Below, piece by piece: positions 26,940 through 42,540 of a stretch of DNA of 64,000 nucleotides (within the stretch, counting starts at the first letter, position 1; each line of letters begins with the position of its first letter). The DNA is from a virus. Both the position numbers and the translations under genes were made by a program. Under the pieces are notes generated by a model that had not been told where the DNA came from, made no database searches, and saw only the letters and a program-made list of their open reading frames with translations. Where the stretch lies: the IMG/VR virus record IMGVR_UViG_3300019935_000002, positions 14,395 through 78,394 of that record, one strand, 5' to 3'.

Positions 26940-27113
26940 TTACTCCTGTTTCTCTTTTTTGATGCGCTCGAAGATCTCTTGTCGGTGCACCTCGACCTCC
27001 CGAGGCGCACTTACACCGATACGAACCTGGCAGCCGTTAACCTCCAGAACCTTTACCGCTACGTCATCACCAATCATGATAGTTTCGCCAATGCGTCGAG
27101 TTAGAATAAGCAT
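26940..27113 (-). CDS. csrA: carbon storage regulator CsrA/RsmA homologue (57 aa)
   Basis: Missed by ORF track. [57 protein letters not shown]. Confidence 0.96.
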
Positions 27114-35460: not shown

Positions 35461-35759
35461 GGGTTCACCTTTAGGGAAGTTGAGGCTTAGAGTTGTGTGC
35501 GTAGGTGTAACTTGGTGTCTGAATAGGCCTGAGGCTTATCAGAATGGATTCTAAGGCGTTTTCTTTGTTGACAGGTACGATGGCCGCACCTTTATGGGTT
35601 GAGCCTTAGAATCGAAAATAGGGCCACCTTTACTGACAGAGGGTTGAGAGTGGTCAGTCGGGGGGTGGGTCATGAGTCGAGGCACCTTTGCAGGTAGCGC
35701 CTAGCAGATGTAAGCAAAGGTGTCAATGCCCTGCTAGTGAGGTCAGAAAACAGGGTGGG

Positions 35760-36830
35760 TACTCGAAAATGCAAGAAATTTCGGAATTTTTTTTTTTGTT
35801 TTGAAAGTGCGCTCAGAAATGACGAATGTGACCGTGACACGATAAATAGTCACGCTAAAGTAATTATATTATTATTTATATTTATTAAAAAAAAAAAAAA
35901 AAAAAAAAGAAGTTCTGGCTAGTGTTGCTAACGCATTGCTGTTGCACCCTGCCAGTACCCGTGTAGAACGAAAATGGGACATTTTGACACAGGTTAAATC
36001 GCGGTTAATTCGCAATTAAATTCGGGTATAGAAGAACTAAAAAAATTTAATATAAATCTCTTATAACTCGATTTTCGGATTTTTTGCGTTCAAACAGGTG
36101 TTTGAATGAAATCGTGGCAGACTTTAACCCGAAATTAACCACAAATTGACCCCGAATTAACCACTTTGTACCCGAAACCAATTGCAAACGTATTGCGAAC
36201 TAACCGCGAACTAGTTGTGTATTAACCCGTCACCTAAATAATAAGTACCTTTAATCAGTTGTGATTAAATTGCGAACCTACCCCGTTCAAGTTGCTTATC
36301 AGTTGCTAATTAACCACTGATAAGACATCCCTAATATTCGGGTTAAGTCTTGGTTAAATCCGGGTACTAAATTTTGGGTTAAATCCGGGTACTAAATTTT
36401 GGGTTAAATCTGGGTAGTGTCGCAATTAAATCGTGGTAGGTTTACAGTTAGCTATTGGTAATTATTTTATAAAAATTATCTTATAAGAACTCAGTAGTTC
36501 AATATGAGTCTTTTATAAAAAATCCGAGGTTACAAACTGTTACAAAAATACCAAAACGGGTTAAATAAGGGTTAACTCTGTAATAGCGAAACCAAAGTTA
36601 ACCCTTATTTAACCTCTATTAAGTTGCTATTGAATTGCGAAACAACTTAGTTCTAACCCTTCTACTGTTGCGAATTAATAGTTATTTAACCCGAAACTAA
36701 GCGACCAAATTACGGCAAATCCGGCCTTTCGCGCCTGAAATCCAGCCTCTAACCTCTGCCGAATCTTGACGGTGTAAAAGGATTTTTCTATTAAAATCTC
36801 TTAAATATAAAATAATTTTTGCAGCCTGGA
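35760..36830. repeat. AT-rich non-coding region with ~11-bp phased degenerate repeats (TTAACCCGAAA-like) in both orientations; candidate origin or packaging region
   Basis: Arrays at 35990-36030, 36124-36232, 36336-36440; 19-bp inverted repeat ~36559-36614; T11 and A22 runs. Confidence 0.65.
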
Positions 36831-36832
36831 CG

Positions 36833-36865
36833 ACGAAAGCCCCAGCCGGTTGCCCGACTGGGGTT
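36833..36865 (-). terminator. intrinsic terminator
   Basis: CCCCAGTCGG-GCAA-CCGGCTGGGG followed by CTTTCGT. Confidence 0.65.
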
Positions 36866-36880
36866 AGCGTTTCCGCTTCA

Positions 36881-36908
36881 ATCTCTATTGCGCTTTGTTG
36901 TGCCTAGT
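36881..36908. repeat. 28-bp perfect inverted repeat, arm downstream of ORF
   Basis: ATCTCTATTGCGCTTTGTTGTGCCTAGT is the exact reverse complement of 37913-37940. Confidence 0.97.
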
Positions 36909-36938
36909 TGGGTTGGGAATTGATCAGGCTAGGCCTGA

Positions 36939-37883
36939 TTAGAAATATTGAACCAGTTCTGAAAGGATTTTCTTAAGCTGGTTCACTTCAGGAGCTTCAG
37001 ACGCTAGAGCGTCTTTAGCCTGAGATTTTAAAGCCTGCACGGCTTCAAAGTTTAACTGAATGGCGTTTAGCATACTTGCTAAGCCTTCGGTCTTCTCTTC
37101 AGACATAAGCAGGTTAGCCGCCAGCTCTACACGCTTAGATGCGTCTAGCGCGGCCTCGCTACTCTTGTCCAAGGCTTTTTCAATGCTAGACGCTGCTTTC
37201 TTTGCGTCCGCTTCAGGGTCGTTAAACTTTCGGTTATCCTTGCCGTTTTGCTTGAAGCTACGCAGGCTGTCCCAGTACGCAGGCGGACGCTTGCGCCACA
37301 TGTAGCCTTTTTTGCGCTTAAGCAGCACAACCAGCTCTTTCTTGCCGCCAGAATCACCAGCGGTTCCGATGGCCTCTTGGGCTGTCGCGTCTGTCGCTAC
37401 TACATCCTTTTTCTGTACACGTACAATAAAAGGTGTAGTTGCTTCCAGATACTTTTTAGCGGCATCAAAATCATGCCGCCAGCCCTTGCTAGTGTACATC
37501 AGCCAAAGGATAGATTGGATTAAGGAGAAGTCTTTATTGCCTGAATCCTGCAAGCGCAAAATACCGGATTGAAGACTATCATTTACCGTTTCCCTGTTAA
37601 CCGTGCCATCCTTGAACGCCTGCACTGTTGAGGCGTAGGACTTCAAAGATTCGGCCAGTTTTAAAGGCATATCCGCGAACGTTTCCACGGCTTCAGGATC
37701 AGCTTCAGCAGTAGCATTCTGCAATGCGGCTAACTCAAACTTAGCCGCATCTTGCCAGCTTTTTGCCGGTTGTCCTGTAAGGTCTTTGTACCCCTTCAAA
37801 GTCTTATATTCTTCTTTTAAAAGAAGAGTGCAAGACTCAATTTGGGCCGAGGTAAAGTCTGTTTTTGCTGTATTTGTTTGCAT
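36939..37883 (-). CDS. hypothetical protein (~314 aa) in its own transcription unit
   Basis: Long ORF with GGTG SD, own promoter and terminator; no recognised motifs. Confidence 0.85.
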   Translation of the reverse strand: MQTNTAKTDFTSAQIESCTLLLKEEYKTLKGYKDLTGQPAKSWQDAAKFELAALQNATAEADPEAVETFADMPLKLAESLKSYASTVQAFKDGTVNRETVNDSLQSGILRLQDSGNKDFSLIQSILWLMYTSKGWRHDFDAAKKYLEATTPFIVRVQKKDVVATDATAQEAIGTAGDSGGKKELVVLLKRKKGYMWRKRPPAYWDSLRSFKQNGKDNRKFNDPEADAKKAASSIEKALDKSSEAALDASKRVELAANLLMSEEKTEGLASMLNAIQLNFEAVQALKSQAKDALASEAPEVNQLKKILSELVQYF

Positions 37884-37912
37884 AGTAATCACCACTTTTA
37901 AAAGAAATGAGG

Positions 37913-37940
37913 ACTAGGCACAACAAAGCGCAATAGAGAT
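37913..37940. repeat. 28-bp perfect inverted repeat, arm upstream of ORF
   Basis: ACTAGGCACAACAAAGCGCAATAGAGAT. Confidence 0.97.
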
Positions 37941-37956
37941 AAATTGTTAAGGAGCG
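37941..37956 (-). promoter_or_regulatory. boxA-like Nus-factor site 2
   Basis: CGCTCCTTAACAATTT(ATC) vs rrn leader TGCTCTTTAACAATTTATC. Confidence 0.65.
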
Positions 37957-38015
37957 AACGGGTAACATCTCGCTAAACTGGCAACACTGTCAACCAGTTA
38001 TTAACCCGTGATCTT

Positions 38016-38174
38016 AATCTAGTTTGCTTGTTCCGCTAAACTGGCGTTCCCTGCTGGTGATGGTAGGTGGGCGCATCCTGCGCCCTTTCTTCACATAGTC
38101 TTATACTCTGCCCCGCATGGCGGCAACAGACGGCAGCCCGTACAAAATGCACGTCCGAGCAAGCAAACCAAATT
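38016..38174 (-). ncRNA. putative small RNA enclosed by 15-bp stem
   Basis: Arms 38160-38174 and 38016-38030 pair in the transcript; contains GGGCGC-AGGAU-GCGCCC hairpin. Confidence 0.45.
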
Positions 38175-38185
38175 GTTAAAGAACA
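38170..38185 (-). promoter_or_regulatory. boxA Nus-factor site 1
   Basis: TGTTCTTTAACAATTT matches GYTCTTTAANA consensus, preceded by hairpin CCGCC..GGCGG. Confidence 0.75.
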
Positions 38186-38271
38186 ACCGCCAGATCAGGC
38201 GGGCAGCCATCCCGCGCGGGGCTGGCCTGTAAATTAGGGCAATCAAACTGAAATACCCTAACCACAAAGTA

Positions 38272-38300
38272 ACTATAGCAAAGTATAAAAGACTTTGCAA
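38272..38300 (-). promoter_or_regulatory. leftward sigma70-type promoter
   Basis: TTGCAA-17-TATAGT with TG extension and AT-rich UP region; TATAAAAGA/TCTTTTATA inverted repeat around -35. Confidence 0.75.
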
Positions 38301-38448
38301 ACTCTTTTATAAAAATAGTAATAAATAAGTACCACGGTTAAAAATTCACGGTTATTAGAGTTACCGTGAAAAAATAACGAACTAGCAATATGACTGTTGC
38401 CTTGGGACTGGTCACACCAGCCAGCCAGCGACAGAGACCCCCTCCCCA

Positions 38449-38474
38449 AAATGTTATGTTATAACGTAACATTT
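38449..38474. promoter_or_regulatory. 26-bp near-palindrome resembling overlapping Zur boxes
   Basis: AAATGTTATGTTATAACGTAACATTT. Confidence 0.5.
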
Positions 38475-38564
38475 CACTCCTACCCTAACTCGTGATATTT
38501 TTGGATTTTTAAAGTTAGTACCCGAATCCAACCCGTCAGCCTCCCTCCGACCAGAACCAGCCCC

Positions 38565-38593
38565 TTGCAAAGCTACAAAACCTGATCCATAAT
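38565..38593 (+). promoter_or_regulatory. rightward sigma70-type promoter
   Basis: TTGCAA-17-CATAAT. Confidence 0.6.
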
Positions 38594-38623
38594 CAGCCCA
38601 CAAACCTACTCAAGGAACTGAAC

Positions 38624-39184
38624 ATGAAATACGTTAAAGAGCTGAGGCTACATAAGGTTGGCGATATCCTCACCGGCAAAGATGGCAGAGACATGGGAGT
38701 CGTAGAGCACCTGAAATCAAAAGCCTGCGAAGTAGTGTCAAGCTCTAGCTTTATGGAAGCTGAGGAGCTAGTCCTAACCTTCAAATACGGCGCGCTTAGT
38801 GAAGAGTACCTGCATAGGTACGATAATCAGTTAGGCCCTTACCAACTGACTCTGCACCCCTCCGAGCAGAAGGTCGTCAGATCCGCCACCGTGTTCCTGC
38901 TGGGAGCGTCACTCTCCGATAAGAGTGTATGGAAGTTCATCGATAGCATTGAATGGGCCGATAGAATCACTGCCGAGGAGAGTATGTGCGAATACATTGA
39001 CATCTCGCGAGGCGGCCAAGTGGTACTGACCATCACCGTAGAAAAGCCTCTGACCCAGGAAGATTTGATTGAGACCCTGGAGAAATCCCCGACCAACTAC
39101 GTCATAAAGTACGTTGAGCTGACAGCTGATGATCGCTGCGACTTTGAAGAGGTGGACCGAAAAGCCTACGAGACTATAAGATAG
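38624..39184 (+). CDS. hypothetical protein
   Basis: ORF with AAGGA SD. Confidence 0.75.
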   Translation: MKYVKELRLHKVGDILTGKDGRDMGVVEHLKSKACEVVSSSSFMEAEELVLTFKYGALSEEYLHRYDNQLGPYQLTLHPSEQKVVRSATVFLLGASLSDKSVWKFIDSIEWADRITAEESMCEYIDISRGGQVVLTITVEKPLTQEDLIETLEKSPTNYVIKYVELTADDRCDFEEVDRKAYETIR

Positions 39185-41738: not shown

Positions 41739-41813
41739 GGGCCTGTAGCTGGACGGTTCAAGCGGACGGCTCATAACCGTCTGACCCCGGTTCGATTCCG
41801 GGCAGGCCCACCA
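41739..41813 (+). tRNA. tRNA-CAT, probably Ile2 (lysidine) rather than Met
   Basis: GGGCCTG/CAGGCCC acceptor, GACGG-CTCATAA-CCGTC arm, TTCGATT loop, CCA; paired 1-72 so not initiator. Confidence 0.9.
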
Positions 41814-41837
41814 CTAACTACACGAGAGGCAGAAATC

Positions 41838-42029
41838 ATGAAAACTTACGAAGAGTGGAAAGCTGATGTTGACCAAAAGGTCGATGATGCCGTCGCCGCA
41901 ATGAAGCGAGTAAAGGCCGTTTTTGAGGAGATCGATAAGGTCGACACTAAGGGCGTCTCACCGACAGACGTACATGCCTTTGCGATTGCTGCGTCTCTTA
42001 AAATGAGTAAAGCCGCGGAGGAAATGTGA
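41838..42029 (+). CDS. hypothetical protein
   Basis: ORF with GAGG SD. Confidence 0.7.
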   Translation: MKTYEEWKADVDQKVDDAVAAMKRVKAVFEEIDKVDTKGVSPTDVHAFAIAASLKMSKAAEEM

Positions 42030-42307
42030 TGGACGTTTTCCCTAAGTGGTCAGTAGTAAATCTCGACAACGGCTATCAAGTGCTCGTAGAGCTGCGTGAA
42101 CCGGATGAAGACGAAGACGACCTAGAGACAGCGACCGCAATTGTAAGCTATAAGACGGCGTTCCCGGAGGCGTTGATGGAAGACAAGTCCTACGTAAAAG
42201 ATAAAGCTCCAGAAGAGATTGACTTCGCGGCTATTACGACTACTGAGATTTGCCAGAAACGATGGGATGAGATGGACAAATCCTACAACGCCTTCTACTC
42301 TTTATGA
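42026..42307 (+). CDS. hypothetical acidic protein
   Basis: ORF coupled to upstream gene. Confidence 0.7.
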   Translation: MMDVFPKWSVVNLDNGYQVLVELREPDEDEDDLETATAIVSYKTAFPEALMEDKSYVKDKAPEEIDFAAITTTEICQKRWDEMDKSYNAFYSL

Positions 42308-42313
42308 TTCACA

Positions 42314-42387
42314 GCGCCATTAGCTCAGCCGGATAGAGCGGTCGTCTCCTAAGCGACAGGCCGTAGGTTCAAGTCCTGCATGGCGCA
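42314..42387 (+). tRNA. tRNA-Arg(CCT)
   Basis: GCGCCAT/ATGGCGC acceptor, GTCGT-CTCCTAA-GCGAC arm; CCA not encoded (TCA). Confidence 0.92.
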
Positions 42388-42391
42388 TCAC

Positions 42392-42465
42392 AGGTCGGTA
42401 GCTCAAAGGTAGAGCAGAGGTTCCAAACTCTCGTGTCGAGGGTTCGATTCCCTCCCGGTCTGCCA
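42392..42465 (+). tRNA. tRNA-Trp(CCA), atypical anticodon stem
   Basis: AGGTCGG/CCGGTCT acceptor, G73, CCA end, loop TTCCAAA; 5' stem strand one base short. Confidence 0.75.
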
Positions 42466-42466
42466 A

Positions 42467-42540
42467 GCGGGTATAGTTCAAAGGTAGAACATCAGCCTTC
42501 CAAGCTGAGAATGCGAGTTCGATTCTCGTTGCCCGCTCCA
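42467..42540 (+). tRNA. tRNA-Gly(TCC)
   Basis: GCGGGTA/TGCCCGC acceptor, TCAGC-CTTCCAA-GCTGA arm, U73, CCA. Confidence 0.95.

Follow-up and report, generated by a model that had tools for sequence, protein, structure and literature searches.

The minus strand of a phage genome carries, where the leftward and rightward arms diverge, a short transcription unit whose layout resembles that of a ribosomal RNA (rRNA) operon. The DNA analysed here, which we call the window, is a stretch of 64,000 nt covering bases 14395-78394 of the 78,394-bp IMG/VR virus record IMGVR_UViG_3300019935_000002, a record with direct terminal repeats. Between positions 38300 and 36833 of the window, a host-type promoter is followed by two modules in series, each with a hairpin, a boxA and, directly after it, the 5' arm of a long-range helix. 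The second helix, of 28 bp, encloses an open reading frame (ORF) of 314 amino acids that belongs to an orphan family. We read this region as a self-contained immediate-early unit, transcribed by the host RNA polymerase and laid out as a miniature rrn operon, and we give this reading, which is drawn from the sequence, a probability of about 0.6. The original prediction, made from the letters of the DNA alone, had described the promoter, both boxAs, the 28-nt arms and the orphan ORF, and all of them were recovered where it had placed them (Table 1).

Two boxA-then-helix modules in series

In the 78,394 bp of the genome, both strands included, the core of boxA1, GTTCTTTAACA, is the sole perfect match to GYTCTTTAANA. 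This word is the published gammaproteobacterial boxA consensus (PMC5725501), and we assumed that it is also that of the host. boxA1 is found about 85 nt downstream of the promoter and some 300 nt upstream of any ORF, within an untranslated leader that extends for about 380 nt ahead of the ATG. When the two G residues that follow it are included, boxA1 forms an 18-mer present without any change in the genomes of at least 120 bacterial species. Among the 121 bacterial matches listed, 98 fall between the 3' end of the 16S and the 5' end of the 23S gene, which identifies the word as a genuine 16S-23S spacer boxA. Alteromonas, Shewanella, Glaciecola, Methylophilaceae, Neisseria and Bordetella are among the groups with an identical spacer boxA. 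Comparison of the window with 120 bacterial rrn loci gave no similarity extending beyond the boxA word, so that boxA1 is not a piece recently captured from those operons.

boxA2 starts 229 nt after boxA1 and lies 58 nt ahead of the start codon of the ORF. It has TTAACAATTT in common with boxA1 and departs from the gammaproteobacterial consensus at a single position, a U to C change at the sixth base of UGCUCUUUA. Both boxAs retain G2 and C5 and have a pyrimidine at position 6 of UGCUCUUUA. In the structural study of the NusB-NusE-BoxA complex G2, C5 and position 6 are the key contacts, and the exchange between C6 and U6 was judged to have a minimal effect on NusB-NusE binding (PMC3177189). boxA2 shares its C at position 1 with lambda boxA and that at position 6 with the rrn boxA of Aquifex aeolicus. 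When up to three mismatches to the 16-mer were allowed, boxA1 and boxA2 were the only matches in the window; two matches were reached in 8 of 100 shuffles. Words with one mismatch to boxA number nine in the genome. One of them, GCTCTTTAACG at 38632-38642 (minus strand), lies upstream of the promoter and within the start of a plus-strand ORF, and is probably there by chance.

The two arms of stem 2 are 1004 nt apart and form 28 Watson-Crick pairs out of 28, with an energy of -50.7 kcal/mol. No inverted repeat of the genome is longer; the next long-range one measures 14 nt, and 17 nt was the maximum over 100 Markov-simulated genomes. The 28-bp repeat after boxA2 is hence far beyond what chance produces.

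Stem 1 pairs at 15 of 18 positions at the DNA level and at 17 of 18 as minus-strand RNA. Because two of these are G-U pairs, it pairs better as minus-strand RNA (-20.6 versus -18.1 kcal/mol). Of the enclosing first stem originally proposed, the pairing is real and appears in both the minimum free energy and the centroid folds, but its significance is modest: although only 4 of 300 shuffles reached 17 gapless pairs out of 18, 233 of 1000 equalled the duplex energy, and by energy stem 1 is indistinguishable from chance. The minus strand has a direct repeat of 12 nt, GCCAGTTTAGCG, with one copy right in front of the 3' arm of stem 1 (38034-38045) and the other in the hairpin that precedes boxA2 (37971-37982). 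This repeat is a hint that one module is a duplicate of the other.

The order of these elements, that is, a hairpin, a boxA and the 5' strand of a long-range helix, is the order found in the leader and in the 16S-23S spacer of rrn operons, and it is copied here twice in series. Together with the identity of the boxA1 18-mer, this bears out the rrn-like layout that had been proposed for the unit. The length of stem 2 falls within the 25-40 bp of the helix between 16S leader and trailer, and is close to the 27 bp of the 23S helix (PMC10250234). The unit differs from an rrn operon in that its second helix encloses a translated messenger RNA (mRNA) and not rRNA, in that this helix is perfect and in the absence of a boxC sequence. 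Furthermore, the arms start 0-5 nt after boxA, whereas the spacing between boxA and boxC in rrn operons is 18-19 nt.

The hairpin at 36863-36840, which would close the unit, is strong, rich in GC and conserved in the two relatives described below, X10 and X11. The intrinsic terminator expected at this place holds as far as the hairpin is concerned, but the tail, CUUUCGUCGU, is a poor U tract and the terminator scan made no call at this hairpin.

Table 1. Elements of the unit in order of transcription (positions in the window)
Element	Position	Strand	Remarks
sigma-70 promoter TTGCAA-17-TATAGT	38300-38272	-	extended -10 TG (TGc); AT-rich upstream stretch; predicted start near 38265
Leader with three hairpins	38265-38187	-	from folds and hairpin scan
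Last leader hairpin CCGCC-TGATCT-GGCGG	38202-38187	-	stops 1 nt short of boxA1 (38185); boxB position
boxA1 TGTTCTTTAACAATTT	38185-38170	-	perfect rrn-type boxA
Stem 1, 5' arm	38174-38157	-	overlaps the last bases of boxA1
Stem 1 insert, 123 nt	38156-38034	-	candidate small RNA or degenerate module
Stem 1, 3' arm	38033-38016	-	from folds
Hairpin ACGGGT...ACCCGT	38009-37958	-	stops 1 nt short of boxA2; second boxB-like position; from folds
boxA2 CGCTCCTTAACAATTT (reads CGCUCCUUA)	37956-37941	-	near-boxA
Stem 2, 5' arm, 28 nt	37940-37913	-	begins at the base right after boxA2
ORF of 314 amino acids (P0001)	37883-36939	-	orphan family; GGTGAT 5 nt ahead of ATG
Stem 2, 3' arm, 28 nt	36908-36881	-	30 nt past the stop codon
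GC-rich hairpin CCCCAGTCGG-GCAA-CCGGCTGGGG, then CTTTCGTCGT	36863-36840	-	weak intrinsic-terminator candidate closing the unit

The same design in other phages

To search for this layout elsewhere, we scanned IMG/VR for the exact boxA 16-mer and recovered 117 loci, with half of the matches outside long open frames. Helices of at least 19 bp that start no more than 45 nt from the boxA were found in 3 of the 117 loci; among 2340 control positions taken from these loci, one had such a helix. Two phages unrelated to the one studied here have the layout of this unit. One (L117) has a promoter, TTGATA-17-TAAAAT, a hairpin and an identical TGTTCTTTAACAATTTGG. Its helix measures 28 bp (-46.9 kcal/mol) and has a clean terminator behind it; the enclosed ORF of 213 amino acids is not homologous to P0001. 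In the other (L078), a boxA is followed by a 29-bp helix around two small ORFs, and further on there is a second boxA with a new promoter ahead of it. A different setting was seen in a phage contig of 360 kb (L048, 10245-10436, minus strand), in which an exact boxA lies inside an array of 22 transfer RNA (tRNA) genes and is followed by a 19-bp helix around some 145 nt that ARAGORN calls a tRNA.

Four further loci with an exact boxA belong to K1F-like coliphages, and these led on to SP6. SP6 (L125, 656-1552) has three boxAs, at 656, 926 and 1536. The first precedes a helix of 22 pairs out of 24 around gene 0.2, and the second precedes one of 31 pairs out of 32 that encloses genes 0.6, 1 and 2. 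The same tandem modules are present in Vectrevirus, UAB_Phi78, Proteus Pm5460 and Pectobacterium Lelidair (L007, L126-L131). Seven SP6-like phages share a helix of 30 bp in which 11 of the 30 pairs change on both sides and still pair, while the cargo inside it varies from 442 to 762 nt. The analogous helices of these phages contain G-U pairs and bulges. Overall, in the SP6- and K1F-like Autographiviridae (Zindervirus, Vectrevirus, Acadevirus and Phimunavirus) the helices are of 22-31 bp and begin at most 3 nt after boxA. Each encloses between one and three small early ORFs, and its 3' arm is directly followed by the next boxA. These phages are unrelated in lineage and genes to the phage studied here, which has two modules only, the first one lacking a convincing ORF and the second one containing a single large ORF. 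Across unrelated phages, boxA is perfect or near perfect, and the 5' arm of the helix begins in fixed register, 0-5 nt after it.

T7 offers a partial parallel. The RNase III sites of T7 are local hairpins between genes. Its early operon (promoters A1-A3, boxA, R0.3 to R1.3) is, like the unit described here, an early unit of the host polymerase with an rrn-type boxA before the first processing site. T7 has one boxA, CGCTCTTTAACAATCTGG at 812-829, whereas there are two here. The T7 boxA is located past promoter A3 and just ahead of the leader of gene 0.3 and of RNase III site R0.3, and no long-range helix was found to start within about 45 nt after it. A passage of PMC3709561, citing Savalia et al. 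2010, calls this boxA an anti-termination element whose mutations make gp2 dispensable. Beyond the T7 boxA, we found no description of phage modules composed of boxA and helix in the open-access literature, a scope outside which the SP6 genome papers lie. The statement that accompanied the original prediction, that no phage mRNA with this layout had been described, fails because of the T7 boxA before R0.3 and of the SP6-like modules around early genes. Taken together, boxA followed by a putative end-pairing helix around early genes is a recurring design and not a one-off.

Two other known systems resemble the unit in part. As in lambda nutL and nutR, boxA would give a phage access to the NusB/NusE of its host, and boxA2 has the C of lambda boxA at position 1. 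In lambda, however, boxB follows boxA and binds N, whereas the hairpins here precede boxA, as they do in rrn operons, and the boxA found here has the full rrn extension, AACAATTT. No N-like protein came to light, although no search was aimed at one. In hok mRNA, pairing of the 5' tac with the 3' fbi element closes the whole mRNA and affects its stability and translation. The unit shares with hok the closure of an entire mRNA by the pairing of its ends. The pairing in hok is nonetheless short and imperfect, has neither a boxA nor a closing role for RNase III, and belongs to a toxin-antitoxin context.

Relatives of the locus and the enclosed products

The four sequencing runs that contain the whole stretch are microbial-mat metagenomes, and none of the runs listed is of RNA. 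On the right side the phage genome encodes the terminase, the portal, the major head protein and a tape-measure protein of 1851 amino acids, and on the left side a primase, helicases and an exonuclease. With the portals of Vibrio phage SHOU24 and similar phages, that of this phage shares only about 35% identity. Four tRNA genes are found on the rightward arm as well, at 41739-42540: those for Met, Arg-CCT and Gly-TCC and a fourth whose anticodon loop is irregular.

A contig of 3528 nt (X11) matches positions 36400-36890 and 38174-38649 at about 95% identity. The 1283 nt between these flanks are replaced in X11 by 1074 unlike letters, so that the interval is 209 nt shorter. One breakpoint is inside boxA1, after TGTTCTTTAACA, and the other is inside the 3' arm of stem 2, at 36890, with the outer ten bases of the arm retained. 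This shortening is near the 229 nt that separate boxA1 from boxA2, and X11 may have only one module, whose cargo has diverged. X11 homology ends at 38649 and hence the gene of 186 amino acids across the divergent promoters (plus-strand ORF 38624-39184) differs too; it is only the intergenic control region that is shared at about 95%. In a soil contig (X10), boxA1 is retained together with the 40 nt that follow. The promoter hexamers are unchanged in X10 and X11, and the changes found in these relatives at 38285 and 38293 are located in the spacer. In the relatives, the putative regulatory flanks are thus conserved and the interior is swapped.

Other approaches to the locus were negative. Searches of viral, metagenome and genome collections with P0001, with an alignment (A1) and with two neighbouring proteins found no related loci, and neither the locus nor P0001 had a BLAST match among 50,697 phage records. 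A pattern scan with the closing hairpin gave no match either, one with the -10/leader word gave two chance matches only, in unrelated DNA, and protein cluster membership tied no P0001 homologue to the X11 contig.

P0001, the product of the enclosed ORF, is predicted to be mostly helical, has an isoelectric point of 7.6 and matches no PHROG or Pfam family. Its AlphaFold2 model is of low confidence (predicted local distance difference test 69, predicted template modelling score 0.39) and found no match in the PDB with Foldseek. The family comprises seven further members, P0002 to P0008, with identities of 25-68%, and its alleles are much more diverged than the flanking DNA.

The first module contains no convincing ORF, the insert of stem 1 having a mini-ORF of 20 codons. 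No match to Rfam 15 was found in 38016-38185, even at E values up to 10, and the weak P15 matches in the scan reflect only a likeness to terminator hairpins. The small RNA originally placed here is unproven: there is no Rfam match, stem 1 is statistically weak and the relative X11 appears about 209 nt shorter across this stretch. A hairpin within the insert, GGGCGC-AGGAT-GCGCCC (38085-38069), also recovered by the hairpin scan, puts CAGGAUG at its loop, which by sequence is a CsrA-type site. GGA occurs four times in 159 nt, which is not above expectation. The phage also encodes a CsrA homologue (Pfam PF02599, 84 bits; window 26958-27113, minus strand), which makes a Csr link to the insert possible. 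The ORF-less first module might be a small RNA with a CsrA-type GGA hairpin, working with the CsrA of the phage.

A proposed mechanism and its alternatives

If the unit works as its layout suggests, transcription would start at the strong sigma-70 promoter, and nascent boxA1, later also boxA2, would recruit host NusB/NusE and then NusA, NusG and SuhB, making the polymerase resistant to Rho across the untranslated leader. The Nus complex would keep the 5' arm of each helix near the RNA exit channel until the 3' arm is made, just as in the rrnTAC model the leader strand is held until the trailer emerges (PMC10250234). The second hairpin and boxA2 would reload the complex after the first helix, as is thought for the spacer boxA of rrn operons. 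In this way, the first helix would close off an RNA of 123 nt, and the second a complete mRNA for the early protein of 314 amino acids. Host RNase III would then cut the 28-bp duplex and separate this mRNA from the boxA-bearing leader, and the two ends of the cut mRNA would stay paired, protecting it from exonucleases. If lambda N and suhB are a guide (references given in PMC5725501), cutting by RNase III might in addition lift a repression of translation that the neighbouring Nus complex exerts.

The genome-wide boxA scan found no boxA-like word after the second helix, and for this reason the modification of the polymerase is probably lost there, the unit ending at the hairpin. Since this hairpin and 1.4 kb of repeat-rich non-coding DNA follow, again with no boxA, we consider the unit to be self-contained, and the proposal that antitermination is carried into the 35-kb leftward arm is doubtful. 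Nothing points to circularization of the RNA, which had also been suggested. In the non-coding stretch past the unit (35461-36830) there are 2.6 copies of a 25-nt repeat (36352-36416), several arrays of the 11-nt words GGTTAAATC and TTAACCCC, an inverted repeat of 19-22 nt (36559-36614) and a run of 22 A (35887-35908). From its composition, this stretch looks like a replication origin or a region bound by regulatory proteins.

The idea that the phage recruits the host machinery for transcription and maturation of rRNA draws its support from the anatomy of the unit, from the identity of boxA1 and from the covarying helices of independent phages, whereas we infer only indirectly that Nus factors bind, that the helices form in vivo, that RNase III cleaves them, and that stability and translation are affected. 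Several observations weigh against it. The C at the deviant position of boxA2 occurs in 0 of about 160 bacterial rrn boxAs sampled, all of which have a T there, so that boxA2 may be a weaker site. Being perfectly Watson-Crick, stem 2 gives no G-U or compensatory sign of acting as RNA and not as DNA, and base-pair covariation cannot be scored at this locus because the interior is replaced in X11. The energy of stem 1, as seen above, is within the range of shuffled sequences. Finally, the RNase III of the host is assumed, as is its boxA consensus. The rrn-like reading is the best available one for this unit, and for this phage it stays a proposal.

A mechanism independent of Nus factors would have the helices form and frame the RNAs on their own, only stabilizing or insulating the mRNA, with the boxAs as inherited patches of homology or recombination joints. 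The break of X11 homology inside boxA1, at 38174, is what such joints would produce, and the SP6-like helix is conserved while its cargo varies, so that boxA and arms could be module borders; boxA2, moreover, differs from every sampled rrn boxA. We find this explanation unlikely, given the near-perfect boxAs in fixed register before the 5' arm in unrelated phages and the genetic phenotype that the passage on T7 cited above ascribes to its boxA. Furthermore, recombination alone would hardly account for the excess of helices that begin directly behind boxA. On the other hand, boxA2 could act as does the boxA in the 5' untranslated region of E. coli suhB. In this case the Nus complex would repress translation of the ORF and permit Rho termination, and boxA2 would serve negative control and not antitermination. 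A boxA close to the start codon does repress suhB, and many such sites exist in gammaproteobacteria (Baniulyte et al., PMC5725501). That search was however limited to boxAs at most 50 nt from the start, and no long-range helix takes part in the mechanism, whereas boxA2 is followed by the 28-bp helix. In addition, boxA1 is far upstream of any ORF and the tandem arrangement fits an rrn leader and spacer, which makes exclusive control of the suhB type improbable. Such repression can nevertheless coexist with the rrn-like reading, if it lasts until RNase III cuts.

The repeats of stem 2 could also act as DNA, either as the ends of an invertible segment of the Hin/Gin type or as those of a small mobile cassette carrying the ORF. 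Perfect 28-bp repeats 1 kb apart do resemble hix/gix sites or terminal inverted repeats, and the interior is replaced in a relative. Yet the ORF has no recombinase or transposase domain, no target-site duplication or flanking direct repeat is found beside the arms, and no strand-switch joint was reported among the contigs compared at the locus. The X11 breakpoints, for their part, lie within the 3' arm and boxA1 and not at the outer ends of the repeats, and the covariation of the analogous SP6-like helices, together with their G-U pairs and bulges, is that of RNA. We consequently regard a role as DNA as very improbable. As for mere coincidence of boxA-like words with a repeat, stem 1 taken alone is weak and the genome has nine boxA-like words with one mismatch. 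The chance of it is nonetheless practically negligible, with a 28-nt repeat against a simulated maximum of 17, the only perfect boxA of 78 kb standing at the head of the unit and a layout that recurs elsewhere.

Beyond this phage, we put forward tentatively, and as a possibility still open to considerable doubt, that a pre-rRNA-like framing is a general and portable cassette through which many unrelated phages express their first genes. Such a cassette would combine uncoupled transcription aided by Nus factors, co-transcriptional closure of the helix and release by RNase III of an mRNA with paired ends, and its boxA and arms would serve as joints for swapping cargo. If this is true, phages outside the lambdoid and T7 groups would routinely borrow the host machinery for transcription and maturation of rRNA to express protein-coding messages, and the control exerted through boxA and Nus factors would reach beyond rRNA, suhB and CRISPR arrays. 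It would also explain how long untranslated phage leaders escape Rho, and would provide a natural design for expression cassettes that are stable, insulated and swappable. Because the layout is present in SP6 and in K1F-like coliphages, the idea is directly testable in E. coli.

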